Below, one piece after another: positions 8,734 through 29,372 of a stretch of 32,000 bases of DNA. The notes beneath the pieces are model-generated. The model made no database searches. It worked only from the letters and a program-made list of their open reading frames with translations, and was not told the origin of the DNA. Location: assembly GCA_030149205.1 (NCBI GenBank), contig JASBSB010000007.1:240001-272000 (forward strand). Reading direction: 5' to 3'. Origin of the DNA: Candidatus Heimdallarchaeota archaeon (GTDB lineage Archaea; Asgardarchaeota; Heimdallarchaeia; Heimdallarchaeales; Kariarchaeaceae). The position numbers were made by a program, and so were the translations under genes. How positions within the stretch are numbered: position 1 is the first letter of the stretch; the number at the start of each line of letters is the position of its first letter.

Positions 8734-9957
8734 TTAAGATTCTTTGTACTTTTGTAATATTTGCTGTAATTTCTTCAACAACTCCTGTTCTAACTCTAGT
8801 GCACTTGTATCTTGTATAGAGATTAATTTTGTATTTCCTCTATGACCCAACCCAGATTTTTCTGCAGCTATAATCTCTAAAAATTCAAGTTCTTGTATAT
8901 ACTCCCAAACTTGTGTGTGTTGGCGTGGTTCAATTTCTATCTCTTCTGCGGCTATTTTATATGCTTCTTCTGCATCTCCTGTGGTTATATAAGCACCCTT
9001 TGTTTTTCGTAATCTTTGCGTTATTCCGTATAGCAGAAGAATCTTGTGTATTGATAGTTCTTGTAGTGTTTCTCTTAGAAGAGATGGGTCTACGTTGGCT
9101 TTTGCTTTTCTAGCATGTTCAGGGTAAACAATTTTACTATTTTCACTGTCTGCAATCTTCCCGGCAATTAATAATAACTCAAGTGCGTGTCTTGCATCCC
9201 CTCCTCTAATTTCTGCAATATCTGCTATGAGTTGTGTTGTTTCATCAGTCACACTTCCTGGTCTGAAACATTCGTCAAGCCTATTTTGTATTATGCTTAT
9301 CAATTCTTCTTTGGAGTAAGGGGGGCAAGAGATAATTGGTGCTCTTAAACTGCTTGTTGTGCTTTTATCAAGATACTTAATAAATCTTGAACTTCTTGCA
9401 ATTACAAGTAAAATAAGTTGATGTTTTGTCTTTTGCTTGTCATCACTTGTTCTACTCAATGCGTATAAGAGCTCTTTTCCACCTTTATGGATCACATGCT
9501 CTATTTCATCTAGCACTAAAACGAGTGTTAATCTTTTATTTTCTAATATTTCAACAATCATCTCAAGAAGCTCGTCTGCTGCATACCCTCTACTAGCTAC
9601 CTTTGAATTTAACTCTCGAGCAACACTTAATAATATCATAAATGGTGTTTTTGTTCTTCTGCAATTTATATGAATAAACTTAATTTTGTTTTCCTTTTTT
9701 TCCTCTGACTTTAGTTGCAACCATTGTCCAAATTTTTTTGCAATTGATGTTTTACCTGACCCAACATTCCCTGTGATAATTATTTGTTTTGTCCCCAACT
9801 GGCCTGTAAATATCCCCCCAAGATAATTTGCCATTTTTTTAAGCTGTTCTTCTCTAAATGGAAGCTGTTTTGGGAGATATTCTGTTGAAAGTTTATTTTC
9901 ATCAATGATTACCGAGGGATGTTTTAGAGCTTCATCAAGAATATCAAGACTATCCAT
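8734..9957 (-). CDS. cdc6: Orc1/Cdc6 family AAA+ replication initiator (paralog A)
   Basis: LPFREEQ, Walker A GNVGSGKT, FIHINC, Walker B LVLDEIE, GDARHALELL, C-terminal winged helix. Confidence 0.95.
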   Translation of the reverse strand: MDSLDILDEALKHPSVIIDENKLSTEYLPKQLPFREEQLKKMANYLGGIFTGQLGTKQIIITGNVGSGKTSIAKKFGQWLQLKSEEKKENKIKFIHINCRRTKTPFMILLSVARELNSKVASRGYAADELLEMIVEILENKRLTLVLVLDEIEHVIHKGGKELLYALSRTSDDKQKTKHQLILLVIARSSRFIKYLDKSTTSSLRAPIISCPPYSKEELISIIQNRLDECFRPGSVTDETTQLIADIAEIRGGDARHALELLLIAGKIADSENSKIVYPEHARKAKANVDPSLLRETLQELSIHKILLLYGITQRLRKTKGAYITTGDAEEAYKIAAEEIEIEPRQHTQVWEYIQELEFLEIIAAEKSGLGHRGNTKLISIQDTSALELEQELLKKLQQILQKYKES

Positions 9958-10258: not shown

Positions 10259-12769
10259 TTAAACGTCTACAACTGGTGAGGATACTAAGTCAGAAATCAC
10301 AGACTTATCCAATATTTGAAATATTGTGATTATGTTTGAAACGAATTTATTTCCTTTGTCGAAATTAAAGATTTTATATTCATTTACACCCAAAGATTTT
10401 GAAATACCCTGTAAGTCAATGATGACAAACAAATTAAAAATAATAAAGAGAGAAATAAACTTCAGTCTTTTAAGGTTGAATTGAGCAATATACCTCTTTT
10501 CAGAATAAAACTTTAGAATTTTCTCTGGGAGTTTGCTTAAAATTTGAACATCAATTATGTTTGGAGCGGGTGAATAAAAGTCTATGAAATCTTGAAAAAT
10601 GTTTTGCAAGGCTAATTTTTCAACTAAATTAGATCTAAAAAGCTCTGTTCCCTGAGCAGGAATTAAGCTCTCAAAATAAATATGAGACAAAACCTTATTT
10701 GAGACTTTAAATTCAGGAAGTAATTCCATTTTATCAAACTCAATGGAAGGAGAATTTAAACTATAACGATTGTCGAATTTAGTAACACTAGTTCGCATTA
10801 GAACTGGAGAAAAACCAAAAGATTTGAACTTAGCAACGGCGTGGAAATTGGGAAGGGTGGGAAGAATTGTAGACTGATCGTTGGTTAAACCAAGAATAGA
10901 GCCTATGAATTTATCATCAGTTCTAAATTGAACAAAAAAACCAACATTTTTCATAACTGAACTAAAGGACTCTACAGAAGTACCTGTAGCTATAACAGAA
11001 ATTCCTTTATACCGTAATGTTAGAACTGTTTCTTCCAGCTTTGAAAAATCATCAGAGACCTTGGAAGATGGGAAAAGATGTTGACTCTCATCTAAAAATA
11101 GAACGTGATTTAAATTAAACTTGTTTGTTTTATTCAAATCAAATCTGCTATAAGAAAGAACCAAAAGATTAACAATTACATCAATTAGAAACCTTACGTA
11201 TTTCAATGGGGATCGTTGAGCAATCAAAGAAAAGTCAAAAAAAACATTATTATTTCTGATTAAATCTGGAGTAAAGTTTGAACTAGAGGACCAAAAAATA
11301 TCCTTAAAGGAGGTTTGTAACCATTTTAACTTTGAAATCAAAGAAATCGAAGAGTTATTTTGATTGTTTGTGACCAACCTTTCTTTAGTAATGCCAACCT
11401 TTAATATGTTTTGAAAAAATACTGAGATGTCTCCATCATTTGTTACAGTAAATTGCAAAGCATCAAAAAGGATCTCTTTTTGAATAGAACTTAAATCTCC
11501 ATCAGAAAGAGTTGTAATAAATAATTGAAAAAGAAAATCAATATGCTCTTCTTTAGAGGTAGTGGGTGGAATTTCAAATAGATTGATGGAGAGATTTACT
11601 TTAGGTGTAAATAATACCCCTGAGTTTTGAAAGAACGGAATTTTAAAAGCATCTCCCTTCAAATCAAAATCAATAATCTTTATACCGGATATAATCATTT
11701 GTTTCATAATAGAAAGTCTAAGGTTAGTCTTACCAGATCCTATAGATCCAGATATAACACCCCCTTGATTAAAATCTTCCAAAGGACAATAAATCTCACG
11801 TTTTTGTGTGTCTGTGAGTTGTCTAAGATAGTTTCCTAAATAGACGTCTGATTTTAATAAATTACGGTTAAGTGGTATTTGGTGATTTGCTGATTGAAAA
11901 TTAAGCGTTGCAGAACTTAAAGAACCAAAGAGTTTTGGGATCTCAACCAAAGGAGAAATCAAATTAGGATGTAAGGTAAATGATCTAGTTCGCTTTGAAA
12001 TTTTGACGTTTTGAGCAACGCTTTGAAGGCTAAGGAGTGAAATATCTTTGTCGTGCTTTGAATTATAGAGAACTTTAAAGGAGTATGTGATTTGTTTCTT
12101 TTTCGACTTAAAATTCACCTCATAACAAATACTATTTTCTTGAGCTTCTATCACCTTCTCTATATGTAAATTTAGTTCACAGAGAGAAACTGGTGAATTA
12201 TGAAAGTCAACCCCTCTTGAATACCTCGGAAATTTTGGTTGTTTGACATAAGTAAAATTAACATTGCACAAATTAAAAATATAGCCAACCGTTGATTCCA
12301 GGTGCCTTGTTCTATAAGGAATCAACCAACTTGAAAATGTGAACATCACAAAAAAGGATTTCTTACCCTGAAAGGTTGAAAAAAAATACGTAAGGTTAAC
12401 ATTCTTAGTATTTAATAACCAACGAGTGATTTTTTTATCTTCGTATCCTTGGGTCTGATCAACTTTGACCCAAATATTCATTTTCCATTTCCATGTGATC
12501 GGATTTAACTGAATACTATGTCCGATCTTGGACCAAGGTAACTTAAATTGGAAAAAATAAAAAAAGAGAATCAAGGGAAATATCGAAATTAAATAGGGAA
12601 TAATCATCTGAAATAGACTAAGAGTAAGAATAAAGAATTCATTAATTTTTATGTCATTTATAAATATCACAAAGGCGTAAAACATGATAAGAAATTTTAA
12701 TAACATACGGATTTCTTTTCTTATGTTTTTATCTTGTGTATAATTAAATTTCGAGTTTCTATGTTTCAT
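10259..12769 (-). CDS. Membrane-anchored HerA/VirB4/FtsK-like (DUF87-type) ATPase
   Basis: Two N-terminal hydrophobic segments; VYLG...GGVISGSIGSGKT (Walker A), IIDFDLKGD, VLFLDESQHLF (Walker B), LRYKGISVIATG. Confidence 0.8.
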   Translation of the reverse strand: MKHRNSKFNYTQDKNIRKEIRMLLKFLIMFYAFVIFINDIKINEFFILTLSLFQMIIPYLISIFPLILFFYFFQFKLPWSKIGHSIQLNPITWKWKMNIWVKVDQTQGYEDKKITRWLLNTKNVNLTYFFSTFQGKKSFFVMFTFSSWLIPYRTRHLESTVGYIFNLCNVNFTYVKQPKFPRYSRGVDFHNSPVSLCELNLHIEKVIEAQENSICYEVNFKSKKKQITYSFKVLYNSKHDKDISLLSLQSVAQNVKISKRTRSFTLHPNLISPLVEIPKLFGSLSSATLNFQSANHQIPLNRNLLKSDVYLGNYLRQLTDTQKREIYCPLEDFNQGGVISGSIGSGKTNLRLSIMKQMIISGIKIIDFDLKGDAFKIPFFQNSGVLFTPKVNLSINLFEIPPTTSKEEHIDFLFQLFITTLSDGDLSSIQKEILFDALQFTVTNDGDISVFFQNILKVGITKERLVTNNQNNSSISLISKLKWLQTSFKDIFWSSSSNFTPDLIRNNNVFFDFSLIAQRSPLKYVRFLIDVIVNLLVLSYSRFDLNKTNKFNLNHVLFLDESQHLFPSSKVSDDFSKLEETVLTLRYKGISVIATGTSVESFSSVMKNVGFFVQFRTDDKFIGSILGLTNDQSTILPTLPNFHAVAKFKSFGFSPVLMRTSVTKFDNRYSLNSPSIEFDKMELLPEFKVSNKVLSHIYFESLIPAQGTELFRSNLVEKLALQNIFQDFIDFYSPAPNIIDVQILSKLPEKILKFYSEKRYIAQFNLKRLKFISLFIIFNLFVIIDLQGISKSLGVNEYKIFNFDKGNKFVSNIITIFQILDKSVISDLVSSPVVDV

Positions 12770-12812
12770 TGTATATATTTGAAAGTTTCATATAAAAATC
12801 ACTAAGAATGAG

Positions 12813-12826
12813 GTTCCAAAAGAAAC
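12813..12826 (+). promoter_or_regulatory. Possible ORB/mini-ORB element
   Basis: GTTCCAAAAGAAAC resembles the ORB core GTTCCAGTGGAAAC and lies in the AT-rich divergent gap upstream of cdc6 paralog B; single copy only. Confidence 0.35.
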
Positions 12827-12912
12827 ATCCGAAATATTCGACACATAGGTGCGTCATAAGGTCAAAGTTTTTTATTGAGAAAATTATCAAACGTTAGGTT
12901 TAGGTGGTTTAA

Positions 12913-14130
12913 ATTTCAGAACAATTTTCTATTGATGATATATTTGATCGATTTGCCCAACCAAAGTTTCAAATCTTTAAGGATAGGAATCTATTGAGGT
13001 CAAGTTATGTCCCAGATTCATTACCATATCGAGAAAAAGAAATGAAACAGCTTGCAAGCATTGTTGGACCTGTCATTGCAGGAGGATTTCCCAGCAATGC
13101 TTTCTTGTATGGAAAAACGGGGCTAGGGAAAACAGCAATTACTCAGAAAGTCTTGAATGCATTAGAAAAAAAAGTAAAGGAAATTGGTCGTAAGGTCGAG
13201 ATAGCATATATAAATTGTCAATTAATAGATACTACTTATCGAGTATACGCACATTTATGTGAGGCTATTGGGATTGAAGTCCCTATTACTGGTTTGCCAA
13301 CAGATGAGGTAATATCAAAATTTACAAAAAATCTTGATCTAAAAAAAATGCATCTGGTTGTTGTATTAGATGAGGTAGATTTTCTACAAAAGAAGGATTC
13401 TAAAACACTTTATGGATTAACAAGGATTAATTCCTCCTTAATGAATTCCAGTTTGTCATTAATTGGGATAACAAATGATGTGATGTTCAAACAGACAATT
13501 GATTCCAGAGTTAGAAGTACTTTAACTGAACAAGAGATAGTTTTCCTTCCATATGATTCAACACAAATTAAGAAAATCATTCAAAATAGGGCTGAGCTAG
13601 CTATGAATCCTGGAGTTCTAGACCCTTCTGCGATTAATCGTGTTGCTGCTATAGCAAGCCAAGAACATGGTGATGCTCGAAGGGCTCTTGATCTTCTAAG
13701 GGTAGCTGGAGAGATTGTTGAAAGAGAAGGAGAATCAAAAATATTGGATGAACATGTTAGACAGGCAGAGAAAATTATTGAGGTTGACGCAGTCACAGAG
13801 GTATTAAGCTCTTTACCGATACAATCTAAGGCTGTAGTAATCGCCTTGTATTTTCTTGAAATTGATAGGTCACCACGGGATGTTATAAACACTACAATAT
13901 TATATCAGAAGTATGACGAGGTTTGTAAATCTCTCCACATAGATCCATTGACCCAGAGAAGGGTGGGAGATTTGATTAATGAATTGGATCTACTTGGAAT
14001 GGCTAAAGCATCAGTGATCAGCAAGGGTAGATATGGAAGATCCAAATTAATTCAATTAACAGTTCAACCAGTTCAAATTAAACGTACACTCTCAAAAGAC
14101 TCAAGTGTATCTTTCTTATTTGAAATCTAA
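12913..14130 (+). CDS. cdc6: Orc1/Cdc6 replication initiator (paralog B, Orc1-1-like); probable ATT start at 12913 (ORF track uses TTG 12994)
   Basis: Walker A GKTGLGKT, VVVLDEVD, GDARRALDLL, LTQRRVGDLINELDLLG...SKGRYGR recognition-helix/wing motif; upstream in-frame IDDIFDRF..IFKDRNLL matches the Cdc6 N-terminus. Confidence 0.95.
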   Translation: MSEQFSIDDIFDRFAQPKFQIFKDRNLLRSSYVPDSLPYREKEMKQLASIVGPVIAGGFPSNAFLYGKTGLGKTAITQKVLNALEKKVKEIGRKVEIAYINCQLIDTTYRVYAHLCEAIGIEVPITGLPTDEVISKFTKNLDLKKMHLVVVLDEVDFLQKKDSKTLYGLTRINSSLMNSSLSLIGITNDVMFKQTIDSRVRSTLTEQEIVFLPYDSTQIKKIIQNRAELAMNPGVLDPSAINRVAAIASQEHGDARRALDLLRVAGEIVEREGESKILDEHVRQAEKIIEVDAVTEVLSSLPIQSKAVVIALYFLEIDRSPRDVINTTILYQKYDEVCKSLHIDPLTQRRVGDLINELDLLGMAKASVISKGRYGRSKLIQLTVQPVQIKRTLSKDSSVSFLFEI

Positions 14131-15454: not shown

Positions 15455-15464
15455 GAAAGACAGA

Positions 15465-18400
15465 GTCTGCCAAACGGCAATTGGTGGATGCCTCGGCTGG
15501 TTAACCGATGAAGGGCGTGGCAAGCTGCGAAATGCGTAGGGTAGGTGCAGGCAACCTTCGATCCTACGATCCCCTAATGAGAATCTCTTGTACATTCAAC
15601 ATGTGTACAAAACCCGAAAGGGTAGGGAACCCACGGAACGAAAACATTCAAGTACGTGGAGGAAAAGAAAGCAATAGCTATTTCCTTAGTAATGGCGAAT
15701 AAAAGGGAAACAGGTCAAACCGAATGCCTTTGTGAAAACAAAGGTACATGTGGTGTTGTGGACCAAAATAAAGGTGTAAAAGGCTAATCTGAAGTAGACT
15801 GGAACGTCTCGCAAGATAGGGTGAAAGCCCCGTAAGAGTAAACCTTACATCTGTTTGGGATCCTGACTAGGGCGGATTGGATGTTCCGTCCAAACTCGAG
15901 AACTAACTCGAAAACCTAAATATTAAACCAGACCGATAGCAAACTAGTAATGTGAATAAAAGGTGAAAAGTGGCGGTAAAACGCTTATGAAAAGTGCCTG
16001 AAACCAATTGTCTAAATAGTGTAATAGTATGTAAGGAATTACGCTTCATGAATCCAAATTTGGCGACAAATAGTCGAGAATGAAGAGAGACCAGTACTAT
16101 TGCGTCAGTCTTGAAACACTGGCCAGGGAGTTTATTTGAGTGGTGAGGCTAAGGTGATATTGTAACCGTAGGGAAACCAATCAGCCCGCAGCAATTGCAA
16201 GGGGCAACGTGTGAAAGCGCGTGAAATCACTCGAATAAGATGCGAAAGGTGCCGATCTATGCGTGACCAGGTTGAAGTCGTGGGAAACTGCGATGGAGGA
16301 CCGAAGAGGTATTGATATACAACTCATTCTTCTGAGTTGCGTATAGTGGTCAAAGGCCAATCGAGGCGCCTGATAGCACATTCATGCAGAAGTGGAGCCG
16401 CAGTCCAGCGTAGCACGAGTATGAACCGTTGGTAGAGTACAGAAAGTGTTGGAATGGGGAGTAAAATCCTCGCCGCACCATCTAACTCCGAATGACGTTT
16501 CTACTTAGACTGCTGCAGTTGGGTGTGTCGCCGTAAGGGTGGCAACCGAGAAGCGAATAAGCTAGACTTGGGTTAAGGGCCCCAAATGTTGATTAAGTGT
16601 AAAAAGCGAAGGACGTCGTATCGCAAAGACAATGAGGTGGTTGGCTTAGAAGTAGCAATCCACTAACAAAAGTGTAACAACTTACTCATCGAGCGGTACG
16701 GCTCTGAAAATGGACGGGGCTAAAATCAACTCCCGATACCCAAGGGCACTATCTTCGTATAGTGATCCGGTATGCATGCGATTGGCGAGGATAGAAGTGG
16801 GTTAGTGATAACCTGTGGACCTCGTTAATGTGTAGATCCTGGTAGTAGTAGGCAGATTTATGGGTGAGAATCCCATAGGTCGAAAAGGCTAGGGTTCCTG
16901 AACAATGTACATCAGTTCAGGGTTAGTCGATCCTAAGAGTAACCTTAATACGGTCAACTCAAAAGGGAAACAGGTTAATATTCCTGTACCACGTGTTAAA
17001 ACGGCAACGATAGAATAAGATCAGACGCTTGTGGATAGGCGATCTTAGTTACTAAGTTAAGTGTATAACTCCGACGAGTAGTGTTGCACTGAGAATCGGA
17101 AGAAATCACAAATAGGAGCCGCCATGGTTCTATCGTTAATTTCCAAAAGCCCATGAAAATGATCTTATTTATTATAGCACGTGTTCGTACCGAAAACCGA
17201 CACGGGTGTCCTTAGGCTGAAAAAGCTAAGACCTTTTGGAGTAATCTAGGCAAGGGAATTCGGCAAAATAGATGGGTAACCAAGGGATAACCATTGCCTT
17301 TAGCTGTTCACGCGGCCGAAGGTGTCACTAACAAAGGGATCCCGACTGTTTAACAAAAACATAGCAAACTGCGAGGGCGAAAGCCTGTGTATAGTTTGTG
17401 TATCCTGCTCAGTGCTCGTAAGTCAAATCCCCGTTCAAGGGGGCTAAGCTCGGGTTAACAGCGGGAGTAACCATGACTCTCTTAAGGTAGGCAAATGCCT
17501 AGTCGGATAATTACCGACGTCCATGAAGGGACCAACGAGGATCCCACTGTCCCTGCCTAGAATCCAGTGAACCTGCGATCCGGCGAACAGACCGGATAGC
17601 CCAGTTGGGAAGAGAAGACCCTGAGAGCTTTACTACAGCTTCCAGCTGTTTACTTGGTCACCATACAGAGCGTAGTCAGGAGCGTCGAACCAGAATCTCC
17701 GGGTTCTGGGAATGCGATAATGGAACACTGACTATGGTGATTGAGCAAACTTACCCGTTGCGACGGGGACACCTGGTGGTGGGTAGTTTTGCTGGGGCGG
17801 CAAACCTCTGATAAAGAAACAGAGGTGCCCAAAGGTCAGCTCAGGAGGGACAGAAATCCTCCGTAGAGTGCAAGGGCATAAGCTGGCTTTACCGTGAATG
17901 TACCAATAGCGTTCGCGGTTACGAAAGTAGGGCCTAGCGATCCATCCGATTGTCCTTAGTAGACGCGGGTGGTGACAGAAAAGTTACCTCAGGGGTAACA
18001 GAGTTGTCGTGCGTTAGAGTTCCCAATCACTTTGGAATTCTAAATTAATTCTTATTGAACCACACTTCACACATGTTGTAAAGTAATTTATAGGGTCTTC
18101 TTCAGTCCACGATCTTAATAGAATAACCCATATACTATTCGATGATTAAGATTTGGCCTGAACTCTAGCTTTCCTTAAAAAGTAGCTGTAAGAATCAAAG
18201 TGATGAACACATTGACCGCACGGCTTGCTTCCTCGATGTCGGCTCTTCCTCGTTTGGTGTTGCATAAGGCACCAGGAATAGGGTTGTTCGCCCGTTAAAA
18301 GGGAACGTGAGCTGGGTTCAGACCGTTGTGAGACAGGTTGGTTTCTATCTAACTGGGCTGTCGGGTAAGTGTAAGTAAAGTGCCATCAGTACGAGAGGAA

Positions 18401-18685
18401 CGTGGTGTTGTGGCCTCTGGTGTATCGGTTGTCAAAAGGCATTGCCGAGTAGCTACGCCATCTCAGATAAGAGCTGAATGCATCTAAGCTCGAAGCTGAT
18501 CTTAAAAAGACTTACCCACCCTGAAATCATAAAGAATTTTCTTTACCGAGTGTTGGCAACAATGATCGGTGATTTTGGGCGAGTCCATGGGCAAAAGACC
18601 CGTTTGCAATGAATGCGGTGTTAGCGTCGAGTATTTACGAGATGTTTAGCCGACATTTAATTACGGACAAGGCGCTTTGTTGGAA
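15465..18685 (+). rRNA. rrl: 23S rRNA (ends approximate), interrupted by an intron at 18025-18210
   Basis: GGTGGATGCCTCGGCT 5' region; H69 GTAACCATGACTCTCTTAAGGTAG; P-loop GCTGGGGCGG; PTC TAACAG and CCTCGATGTCGGCTC; A-loop; sarcin-ricin loop AGTACGAGAGGAAC. Confidence 0.97.
18025..18210 (+). other. 186-nt archaeal BHB intron in 23S helix 89 loop (between E. coli-equivalent 2477 and 2478)
   Basis: GTTC(18019-22) pairs with GAAC(18205-08); 3-nt bulges CCA and ACA; inner stem ATCACTTTG/CAAAGTGAT. Removal restores GAGTTCCCATTGAC, colinear with E. coli GAGTTCATATCGAC. Confidence 0.9.
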
Positions 18686-19842: not shown

Positions 19843-21618
19843 TTAAACCACAACGACATTAAAATTATTAGACGAAAGTAGATTTATTTCTGAATTTAAT
19901 TTTTCTAACACTTTAAGGTCAGACTCATACTTCATCCTTGGTATCTTATCAAAGATCTCATTTGCTAGAATATCTTCTAAAACAACACCATTATTAAAGA
20001 GAGTTCTCATTTTATCATAAATATCGAAAATGTTTCTGAGCATAATGGCTTGTTTCTTTGGTTCACAAAATGCATCAACATCATGGAAGGCATTCTGCTG
20101 CAAATAGTCCTCTTTTAACATAGTTGCTGCCTCCAAAGTGATTCTCTCAACTGGAGATAATGCATCAGGACCAACTAGTTGAACAATCTCTTGTAAATCA
20201 TTGTCTTCTTGTAACAGTCTAAAAGCTCGTGTTCTAAGCTCTGGAAAATCCTCACTGAAATTTTCTTTGTAATAGTCTTCAAGAACATCCCAATATAACG
20301 TATAACTTTCAAGATAAGAAATTGCAGGGAAATGTCTTTGTTCTGCAAGTTTTTTGGTCAACGCCCAAAAAGCCTTGACGATTCTCAGGGTATTCTGTGT
20401 AACAGGTTCCGAGAAATCACCCCCGGGTGGAGAAACAGCACCTATAATAGATACTGAACCAATTTTATCTTCTCCTTTACCTAAAATTTCAACCCGTCCA
20501 CCTCTCTCGTAGTATGCAGCAATCTTTGATCCAAGATAAGCAGGATAACCTGCCTCCCCAGGCATTTCCTCTAACCTTCCTGATATTTCTCTCATTGCCT
20601 CTGCCCATCTTGAGGTAGAGTCAGCCATCATTGCCACATCATACCCCTGGTCTCTAAAATATTCAGCCATTGTGACTCCAGTGTAAACAGATGCTTCTCT
20701 TGCAGCCACAGGCATATTAGAGGTGTTTGCGATCATTGTTGTTCTAGCCATTAATTTTAAACCCGTTCTTGGGTCATCCAAATGGGGAAATTCTTCCAAC
20801 ACGTTTGTCATTTCATTACCCCTCTCACCACATCCTACATATACTACAATCTGAGCATCACTGAATTTAGCAAGTGAGTGTTGACTAACAGTTTTACCTG
20901 TTCCAAAAGGGCCTGGAATTGCAGCAACCCCACCCTTTGCAATCGGGAAAAATGTGTCAAAGATCCTTTGACCAGTCACCAGGGGCTGATTTGAAGCCAT
21001 TCTTCTCTTGAAAGGACGGGCAATTCTGACGGGCCATCTTTGATATCCTAAGACCTCTTTTGTTTCCCCATCTTCAGTTTCAACCTTTGCCAATACCTCT
21101 TCAATTGTATATTCACCTGACTTAGCGATTTCAACTATCTTCCCTTTTAACATGGGTGGTATCATAATTTTGTGAGTGTATGCAGGTGTCTCTTGAACTG
21201 TTGCAATCACATCACCTCCTTCAACAACATCACCCAGTTTTGCCTGTATTTCAAATTTCCATACTTTCTTCAAATCTAATGCTGGGGTTTCAATCCCTCT
21301 TTGAATGAATGCACCTGTTTGTTCTTTAATCGAACTCAGAGGTCTTTGGATGCCGTCATAAATTTGTGACATTATTCCTGGCCCCAACATAACAGATAAT
21401 GGTTCTCCAATTCCCACTACCTTTTCTCCAGGTTTGATGCCGTCTGTAGTCTCATAGCATTGAATTGTAGCTATATCGTTCTCCACTTGGATTACTTCCC
21501 CAATTAAACCAAGATTTCCAATTCTCGCTACATCATACAAACGCACACCTAACATATTTTTAGCCTGAACTACAGGTCCAGATATTCTAATAATTGTTCC
21601 TTCAATGTTAGTACTAAT
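19843..21618 (-). CDS. atpA: A/V-type ATP synthase subunit A; probable start near 21618 (ORF track starts at 21705)
   Basis: RISGPVV, GPFGTGKT, YVGCGERGNEM, EISGRLEEMPGEAGYPAYL, SPPGGDFSEPVTQ; strong SD GGAGGTG at 21630-21624. Confidence 0.97.
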   Translation of the reverse strand: MSTNIEGTIIRISGPVVQAKNMLGVRLYDVARIGNLGLIGEVIQVENDIATIQCYETTDGIKPGEKVVGIGEPLSVMLGPGIMSQIYDGIQRPLSSIKEQTGAFIQRGIETPALDLKKVWKFEIQAKLGDVVEGGDVIATVQETPAYTHKIMIPPMLKGKIVEIAKSGEYTIEEVLAKVETEDGETKEVLGYQRWPVRIARPFKRRMASNQPLVTGQRIFDTFFPIAKGGVAAIPGPFGTGKTVSQHSLAKFSDAQIVVYVGCGERGNEMTNVLEEFPHLDDPRTGLKLMARTTMIANTSNMPVAAREASVYTGVTMAEYFRDQGYDVAMMADSTSRWAEAMREISGRLEEMPGEAGYPAYLGSKIAAYYERGGRVEILGKGEDKIGSVSIIGAVSPPGGDFSEPVTQNTLRIVKAFWALTKKLAEQRHFPAISYLESYTLYWDVLEDYYKENFSEDFPELRTRAFRLLQEDNDLQEIVQLVGPDALSPVERITLEAATMLKEDYLQQNAFHDVDAFCEPKKQAIMLRNIFDIYDKMRTLFNNGVVLEDILANEIFDKIPRMKYESDLKVLEKLNSEINLLSSNNFNVVVV

Positions 21619-21844
21619 GATAACACCTCCATAGATAAATCTATGAGTTTTTTCTAATCTCAAGTCAACCCCCCTAATTAAAAGTTGATGATTGTTTATG
21701 CTCAAAATCTCTGTCTCTTTGACTCGTAATATTCAATTTTTTATCTATCATCAAAGAAGATTAAAGAATGCTACTGAGACCAAATCGATGGAGTTATATG
21801 CTCTCTGGATTAATAAGGATAACTTCAAACCTCGGTTTGTTTCT

Positions 21845-28570: not shown

Positions 28571-29188
28571 TTAATCCTCGACATCAATAATAAAGTCTTC
28601 TTCAACATTTGTGTTAGGTAGGTGAAAGAGGGTGACTTCGAGTATACCATTATTCAATTTTGCTGCAATCCTCTTCTTGTCTATTGCTTTCACATGATTA
28701 AAGGTAACAAGTTTACTGTAGACAACATCCTGTTCTGAAGCTCGAGCCACAATATGTAACCCATCATTTTTGAGTTTTATTTGCAATCCTGATTTTTCAA
28801 CCCCAGGGATCTCTGCAATTATTATTGTCTTATTATCTACTACCGATAGCTCAGTATAGGGTTCTATTGTTCCATCAGGGTTTAATTTATCCTGAGGTGT
28901 TGGTGTAACAGTTTGATTTGCGAACCCTGGAATGAATGAAGGTGCACCATTTTTAAAAATGAAACCAAATGATTTTGCATCTAACCCACTTCCCTGAATT
29001 CCCATCTTATTGATCATGTCCATCATATCTTTCATCATCTGAGGTGTGAATTCAACACCTCCCTGGTTAAAAATGTTCCCAAAATCTTTTTGAAACTTTT
29101 CAATTAGGTCTTGTAAAGGCATTCCAAAGAACTGTCTTGCCAATTTGTCTAATTCTTCCCAATTAATATCGTCTGGTGTAAATTTCAT
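28571..29188 (-). CDS. hsp20: Small heat-shock protein (Hsp20/alpha-crystallin domain)
   Basis: EPYTEL...IIIAEIPGVEK...AKLNNGILEVTL; ATG at 29188 follows SD AGGTG; upstream of cdc48. Confidence 0.88.
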   Translation of the reverse strand: MKFTPDDINWEELDKLARQFFGMPLQDLIEKFQKDFGNIFNQGGVEFTPQMMKDMMDMINKMGIQGSGLDAKSFGFIFKNGAPSFIPGFANQTVTPTPQDKLNPDGTIEPYTELSVVDNKTIIIAEIPGVEKSGLQIKLKNDGLHIVARASEQDVVYSKLVTFNHVKAIDKKRIAAKLNNGILEVTLFHLPNTNVEEDFIIDVED

Positions 29189-29372
29189 ATAAAGCACCTA
29201 TTGTATCTCTTGTATTATACAATTACTACTATATCTTGCTCATATAAAAACCTGTGTATTCCTCAATACTAAAGTATTGATTCTATTTATAACTTACAAG
29301 CTATAGCTTATATTATTCTCTAACCTAATCTTTTTTAAACCTTTTCTCAATAGATGAAATGGTGAATTAACA

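Follow-up and report, generated by a model that had tools for sequence, protein, structure and literature searches.

An ATT codon as the probable translation start of a Heimdall-group cdc6 gene, and apparent near-cognate starts in its lineage

At which codon does translation of cdc6-B, the main replication-initiator gene of this Heimdall-group Asgard archaeon, begin? The question arises because the conserved beginning of its reading frame is preceded by an ATT codon and by no canonical start. The window, that is, the whole 32,000-nucleotide stretch of DNA analysed here (G000:C8:240001-272000), belongs to a genome (G000) of 3.3 Mb in 12 contigs that is 93.5% complete. The features of the start region, with positions counted from the first letter of the window, are as follows.

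12896-12899, plus strand: a second AGGT, 4 nt before GTG 12904
12902-12908, plus strand: Shine–Dalgarno (SD) site AGGTGGT, matching AGGTGAT in the complement of the 16S rRNA 3′ end
12904-12912, plus strand: GTG GTT TAA, with the GTG inside the SD site and in frame, and the stop at 12910-12912
12913-12915, plus strand: ATT, the proposed initiation codon and the first codon after the TAA stop
12913-14130, plus strand: predicted cdc6-B coding sequence (Orc1/Cdc6, Orc1-1 type), 405 amino acids plus stop
12916-12993, plus strand: conserved N-terminus of 26 codons, lost if TTG 12994 is the start
12994-12996, plus strand: TTG, the first canonical in-frame codon and rival start, with a weak SD-like AGGA upstream

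The plus strand reads ...gttAGGTttAGGTGGTT TAA ATT TCA GAA CAA TTT TCT ATT GAT GAT ATA TTT GAT CGA TTT... Between the stop at 12910-12912 and TTG 12994 the number of in-frame ATG, GTG or TTG codons is zero, and the open frame reads ISEQFSIDDIFDRFAQPKFQIFKDRNL. A start further upstream in the same frame is impossible, because GTG 12904 is closed by the stop at 12910-12912. The original prediction had described exactly this arrangement (TAA at 12910-12912, ATT at 12913, and canonical codons absent before TTG 12994), and the sequence confirms it. The length of the gene depends on the start codons that are admitted: the table-11 start set gives the 405-residue frame, and ORF calling with ATG, GTG and TTG only gives 378 residues from TTG 12994. 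The predicted N-terminus is (M)SEQFSIDDIFDR (MSEQFSIDD...) from the ATT versus (M)RSSYVPD from TTG 12994. Initiation at AUU is established in bacteria, in infC and other genes, and ATT is a member of the table-11 start set.

The 16S rRNA of this genome ends in ...GGATCACCTCCT, and the ideal SD sequence is therefore AGGAGGTGATCC. AGGTG at 12902-12906 lies 6 nt from the ATT, as had been claimed. For the first canonical starts of long ORFs in the genome, the aligned distance from SD to start peaks at 13-16, and the cdc6-B site, at an aligned distance of 14 from the ATT, falls inside this peak. The predicted anti-SD duplex has an energy of -11.4 kcal/mol for the 18 nt before the ATT, compared with -4.6 kcal/mol before TTG 12994, where the weak AGGA also stands at an aligned distance of 14; only 3.6-7% of positions reach -10 kcal/mol. 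It had further been proposed that the spacing equals that of an hsp20 ATG in the window, and this part found no confirmation. The sole AGGTG-N6-ATG of the window (29199-29186, minus strand) belongs to a 205-residue, Pfam-negative ORF, and no HSP20 domain was detected in the window ORFs scanned, a scan outside which some small ORFs fall. The ORF finder places the start of this frame (28571-29197, minus strand) at the GTG inside AGGTG, and the SD-spaced ATG lies 9 nt downstream (29188). The GTG of a GGTG-containing SD is always in frame at 6-nt spacing and can systematically mislead the calling of starts in this genome. The window also carries a complete archaeal 23S rRNA gene (15460-18678, plus strand) with no adjacent 16S gene. 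The rRNA genes of this genome appear to be unlinked, because the only full 16S 3′ tail was found on contig C2, away from that 23S gene.

Comparison with other Cdc6 proteins argues that the stretch upstream of TTG 12994 is coding. Residues 2-27 of cdc6-B are 46-69% identical to those of its seven closest orthologues, compared with 62-75% for the remainder of the protein, the relatives used being at most 75% identical, so that a very recent loss of the start would escape detection. Within this segment, F22 and R25 do not vary across an alignment of 16 sequences, and the peptide QIFKDRNL corresponds to residues 4-11 in the chain sequences of the two crystallised Orc1 proteins, 2v1u among them. 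The ATT itself aligns column for column with Met1 of the orthologue P0003 (MSNQFSLDDIFDKF). A further comparison is available inside the window.

8737-9957, minus strand: paralog A, a divergent Cdc6 with 28% identity to cdc6-B (paralog B)

Paralog A has 22 residues before the L..Y.P..LP.RE motif, as had been stated, and its N-terminus aligns to that of paralog B from residue 6. The proposed resemblance of the frame before TTG 12994 to a Cdc6 N-terminus is thus upheld by the identity to orthologues, by the invariant F22 and R25, and by the alignments with paralog A and 2v1u. Between both cdc6 genes, and divergent from cdc6-B, lies an 836-residue ORF (10262-12769, minus strand) for which Pfam gave nothing at E<=1e-5.

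The rest of the protein is that of an ordinary archaeal initiator. Pfam matches comprise Cdc6_lid (5e-24), Cdc6_C (4.5e-22), AAA_16 and AAA_22, and the motif GKTGLGKT is present, so that AAA+, lid and winged-helix features are all found. Residues 20-400 align with A. pernix ORC1 (2v1u_A, E=7.4e-98) and with S. solfataricus (Sulfolobus) Orc1-1 (2qby_A, E=7.7e-95). The AAA+, lid and winged-helix domains are common to all three proteins, whereas cdc6-B differs in about 19 extra N-terminal residues, which it shares with Asgard orthologues, and in its non-canonical start codon. Its closest database relatives are Asgard proteins of 402-411 residues, and those that are named come from Kariarchaeaceae or Heimdallarchaeota. 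A search of 5.8 billion proteins returned no relative above 75% identity, and searches of metagenomes for closer relatives gave none with the protein query and nine distant loci only with the alignment query, which were left out of the comparisons. Convincing ORB-type origin repeats beside the gene were absent from 12600-13000.

The 5′ ends of the cdc6 orthologues of 29 relatives were read at the DNA level. ATG, GTG or TTG is present in 27 of the 29, four to eight codons before a conserved [SD]-[ILV]-[DE]-x-[IL]-F-[DES]-[RKN] motif. One of the remaining two (L023) is cut by a contig end. The other (L006), from genome G005 of the same family, has no canonical start and carries ATA at the codon aligned to the ATT, behind AGGGGGT. 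The start codons within the family are listed below by genome.

G000: ATT
G005: ATA
G006: TTG
G001, G003, G004, G007, G010, G011: ATG

Near-cognate cdc6 starts are therefore confined to G000 (ATT) and G005 (ATA) among the nine family orthologues with a readable 5′ end, and they are not conserved, since most of the family and the two congeners with a match (G001 and G003) have ATG. Because these two congeners carry ATG, the ATT of cdc6-B is judged to be young. The alignment of orthologous 5′ regions, which had been suggested as a check that would reveal either a conserved ATT or a switch to ATG, gave the switch; the ATT occurs in G000 alone, with ATA in G005.

To place this codon in a wider context, the genome was scanned for stop-to-stop ORFs of at least 150 codons in which the first ATG, GTG or TTG lies well inside the frame. 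At such canonical-start-free 5′ ends, ATT stands 5-8 nt after GGTG in 10/362 cases, versus 56/6755 for other non-canonical codons (Fisher p=0.0017). ATC, ATT and ATA are the top three non-canonical codons enriched behind SD matches of at least 6 nt (18/732 versus 58/6385, p=5e-4). Broader counts, based on 5-mer matches or on any strong SD in front of a long ORF, suffer from a high background of SD-like intragenic sites: the near-cognate share is 35% with the real SD and 21-31% in controls. They serve only for an order of magnitude, roughly 10-25 such starts among the long ORFs of G000. All near-cognate cases were ascertained from G000, and the genomes of relatives were probed one gene at a time, so that rates are not comparable between genomes. 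The individual genes that carry the comparison are given below.

G000:C2:413661-414659 (L040, L054): ribosomal protein uL3, start AGGTGATgcttt ATT, behind AGGTGAT
G000:C4:669392-670042 (L041): ribosomal protein uL1, AGGAGGTGATgacag ATA; ATC in three congeners, ATG in two other genera
C8:171690-172148 (L045): E2 ubiquitin-conjugating enzyme, ATT; ATA in four relatives, ATG in one
C7:363468-364496 (L043): 342-residue protein, ATT; ATT or ATC in all four genus genomes, in the congeners behind GAGGTG
C4:532119-534941 (L042): PPDK, AGGTG followed after 7 nt by CTG; ATG in congeners G001 and G003
C4:293655-295022 (L044): Rpb5-C fusion, ATT; ATG in congeners G001 and G003
C8:498445-500361 (L051): acetyl-CoA synthetase (ACS), ATT ATT; one congener without a canonical start
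19843-21705 of the window, minus strand: ORF of atpA (A-type ATPase subunit A), GGAGGTG at 21630-21624, ttatc, ATT at 21618-21616; GGAGGTGttatc ATT

The uL3 gene retains its ATT in G000-G003 and G007, and G006 has ATA ATT ATA at this place (L055-L058, L061). The match to the Pfam L3 profile covers the protein from residue 5 on, and the first canonical codon is residue 50. An element GGCCTCT(G/A)G is conserved across the family just upstream of the uL3 SD. In uL1 and the E2 gene an ATH codon (ATT, ATA or ATC) is kept across the genus, and in eS17 of G000 the conserved N-terminus precedes any canonical start. The atpA gene of three congeners has GGAGGT, 6 nt and ATG at the aligned codon (ISTNIEGTIIRI in G000 versus MSSQIEGTIIRI in the congeners); its case is less clean, as in-frame TTG codons upstream (21705 and 21663) would lengthen the protein by 29 or 15 residues that are not conserved. 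The ACS gene of congener G001 (G001:C71:9705-11584; L146, L147) is split into abutting frames covering residues 11-355 and 356-638, either by a frameshift or by an assembly error. The codons of uL3, uL1, the E2 gene and aIF1 (described below) recur, unchanged or as synonyms, in genomes that were assembled independently, which excludes sequencing error as the explanation of the phenomenon in the lineage.

Three other accounts of the cdc6-B start can be set against this body of comparisons. Initiation at TTG 12994 would yield the 378-residue protein, with the 27 codons upstream being the relic of a recently lost ATG. This is the first canonical codon and it has an AGGA at a suitable aligned distance; moreover, crenarchaeal Orc1 proteins have only about three residues before the IF motif, so that much of the cdc6-B extension is lineage-specific. 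The TTG start is nevertheless very unlikely, since it removes the conserved QIFKDRNL with the invariant F22 and R25, since the strong SD stands before the ATT and only a weak one before the TTG, and since ATT starts, such as that of uL3, are retained for long periods in the lineage. A base-call or consensus error at 12915 hiding a true ATG could be imagined in a metagenome-type assembly such as this one, the more so as congeners have ATG near the position of the ATT. It becomes highly improbable in view of at least nine other genes of the assembly with the same kind of start, several of them identical or synonymous in the independently assembled relatives; in addition, homopolymer errors in long reads mostly take the form of indels, which would disrupt the frame. 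Extremely improbable is initiation at GTG 12904, translation of the mini-ORF GTG GTT, and termination-reinitiation at the abutting ATT. The codons GTG GTT TAA ATT are indeed contiguous and in frame, AGGT lies 4 nt before the GTG, and the 342-residue gene repeats the layout as GTG CAA TAA ATT. This layout is expected, however, from the way in which cases were filtered: because a GGTG SD at 6-nt spacing always puts its GTG in frame, the filter for absent canonical starts passes such cases only when a stop intervenes, and the stop abutting the ATT was accordingly rejected as a meaningful signal. Near-cognate starts without a mini-ORF are found in uL3, uL1, ACS and aIF1, and the GTG in the cdc6-B SD is taken to be incidental to the SD sequence rather than the start of a functional uORF.

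Translation of cdc6-B thus very probably initiates at ATT 12913. This central claim of the original prediction is well supported by the conserved N-terminus, by the alignment of the start codon, by the strength and spacing of the SD, and by the other genes with starts of this kind. The full explanation, in which the ATT is used with the normal initiator Met-tRNA and is one case of a lineage-wide near-cognate habit seen in at least ten other genes of this genome and its relatives, is given a probability of roughly 0.8. According to this explanation, AGGUGGU would pair with the 16S 3′ end and anchor the 30S subunit. AUU would thereby be placed in the P site, where the CAU anticodon of the initiator Met-tRNA would pair with the first two bases and mismatch the third. 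The in-frame UAA just upstream would shut off any longer product, and the protein made would be a 405-residue Orc1/Cdc6 beginning with methionine. Across the Heimdall-group family, SD-led AUU, AUA and AUC, and occasionally CUG, would serve many genes and interchange with AUG over evolution.

A single, ordinary initiator tRNA was found (G000:C2:248973-249048, minus strand), with anticodon CAU, an A1:U72 pair and a GGG/CCC anticodon stem. No variant initiator tRNA with a non-CAU anticodon was found in G000 with ARAGORN, a program that misses many intron-bearing tRNAs. ARAGORN reported only 15-18 tRNAs in this genome, a low count that is presumably due to non-canonical introns. AUU would be decoded as a start with insertion of methionine, at an output below that of AUG; bacterial and Sulfolobus data predict such a lower output. 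Against the ATT start speaks the aIF1 of Sulfolobus, which rejects AUU model mRNAs (PMC4705826), so that efficient use of AUU would need relaxed stringency. The gene for this factor in G000 is the following.

G000:C4:157413-157619 (L084): aIF1/SUI1, reading TGA ACA ACA ATA TTC GAT GAT..., with AGAGGT upstream

The aIF1 gene of G000 has no ATG, GTG or TTG before the zinc knuckle. The codon of isoleucine in its "IFDD" sequence is ATA or ATT in G000, G004, G007, G009, G010 and G011, six of the ten family genomes, and TTG in G006 (comparison loci L106, L107, L113, L114 and L156-L160). In congeners G001-G003 an additional ATG stands two codons before this one, at a very short distance from the SD, and the sister family f2 mostly has GTG. 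The idea of an ATG loss specific to G000 was rejected, ATA or ATT at this codon being the family norm. A stringency factor thus appears from its sequence to have a near-cognate start in a family where such starts are common, which is a correlation only. It could be speculated that aIF1 translated from ATA or ATT limits itself as IF3 does, and that the AUH- or CUG-started mRNAs of Cdc6, uL3, uL1, eS17, ATPase subunit A and PPDK are translated according to the scarcity of aIF1; this is unlikely. If true, the initiation of replication would be tied to translation capacity and to energy supply through a start-codon-stringency regulon, in an archaeon closely related to eukaryotes.

A narrower proposal concerns cdc6-B itself. 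The original prediction held that the dosage of the replication initiator may be tuned by start-codon stringency, that is, that the ATT was selected to keep Cdc6 low or stringency-responsive in the manner of infC. Several observations lean in this direction: less protein is expected from a near-cognate start, the cdc6 gene of G005 independently carries ATA, and one can conceive of a set of stringency-responsive genes where the stringency factor aIF1 itself has ATA or ATT in most of the family. Against them stands the fact that the cdc6 ATT is not conserved, with ATG in six relatives and TTG in G006. The same codons head the abundant uL3, uL1 and atpA, where a low dosage is unexpected, and ATG and ATH interchange in several genes. 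Dosage control through this codon is decidedly unlikely, and the proposal did not receive specific support, given the ATG of the congeners, the ATT, ATA, ATC and CTG starts shared by housekeeping genes, and a product that is no fidelity factor. That uL3, uL1 and atpA carry such starts speaks for a modest near-cognate penalty in this lineage. Since the ATT appears young and starts in the lineage flip between ATG and ATH, the codon is read as tolerated drift in a permissive system, and any effect on the amount of Cdc6 is probably a side effect that is tolerated, rather than a dedicated control. Lineage-wide tolerance of near-cognate starts fits better than infC-like tuning.

The use of near-cognate starts has consequences for both annotation and evolution. 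Gene finders restricted to ATG, GTG and TTG truncate or mis-start such genes: Cdc6 loses 27 residues, uL3 loses 49, and the zinc knuckle of aIF1 loses its first two cysteines. These errors propagate to structure prediction, phylogenies and expression constructs. The retention of AUU, AUA and AUC by a Heimdall-group family on genes that are essential and abundant, and their exchange with AUG, points to relaxed checking of the third codon position, which bears on the evolution of the very strict start selection of eukaryotes.

Two reviews of archaeal initiation admit no start codons besides AUG, GUG and UUG, and aIF1 is described there as a factor that rejects AUU (PMC7531240, PMC4705826). Ribosome profiling in Haloferax saw near-cognate candidate sites and set them aside (PMC7261190), and no systematic description of near-cognate starts was found. 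One close precedent is the AtubA gene of the Kariarchaeaceae MAG 81MaySF_Bin13, to which a "rare ATT start codon" has been assigned by inference, together with a ribosome-binding site (2026, PMC13394414). It apparently belongs to the same family as the genome studied here, and in both cases the ATT was deduced from a truncated N-terminus and a well-placed ribosome-binding site. That paper treats one gene, without a survey or conservation analysis, and the Tubulin-family matches in G000 are of the FtsZ type only. The classic AUU-initiated gene is E. coli infC, which encodes IF3 (Butler et al. 1987, as cited in PMC4705826). Like cdc6-B, it has a near-cognate AUU behind an SD as the only possible start and uses the normal initiator tRNA. 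The infC codon is conserved and its product is a fidelity factor that represses its own AUU, whereas cdc6-B encodes a replication initiator and its codon is not conserved among congeners. Fidelity is the task of IF3 in the bacterial infC case and of aIF1 and aIF2 in Archaea. Autoregulation of the infC type does not fit cdc6-B, whose product is Orc1/Cdc6 and for which the stringency factor aIF1 is a separate gene. Eukaryotic eIF1 autoregulates through an AUG in poor context (PMC6237735, PMC4705826), which offers a possible parallel for the ATA- or ATT-started aIF1 of the family and not for cdc6. The gene that fits the logic of infC in this lineage is aIF1, the layout of which resembles that of infC.
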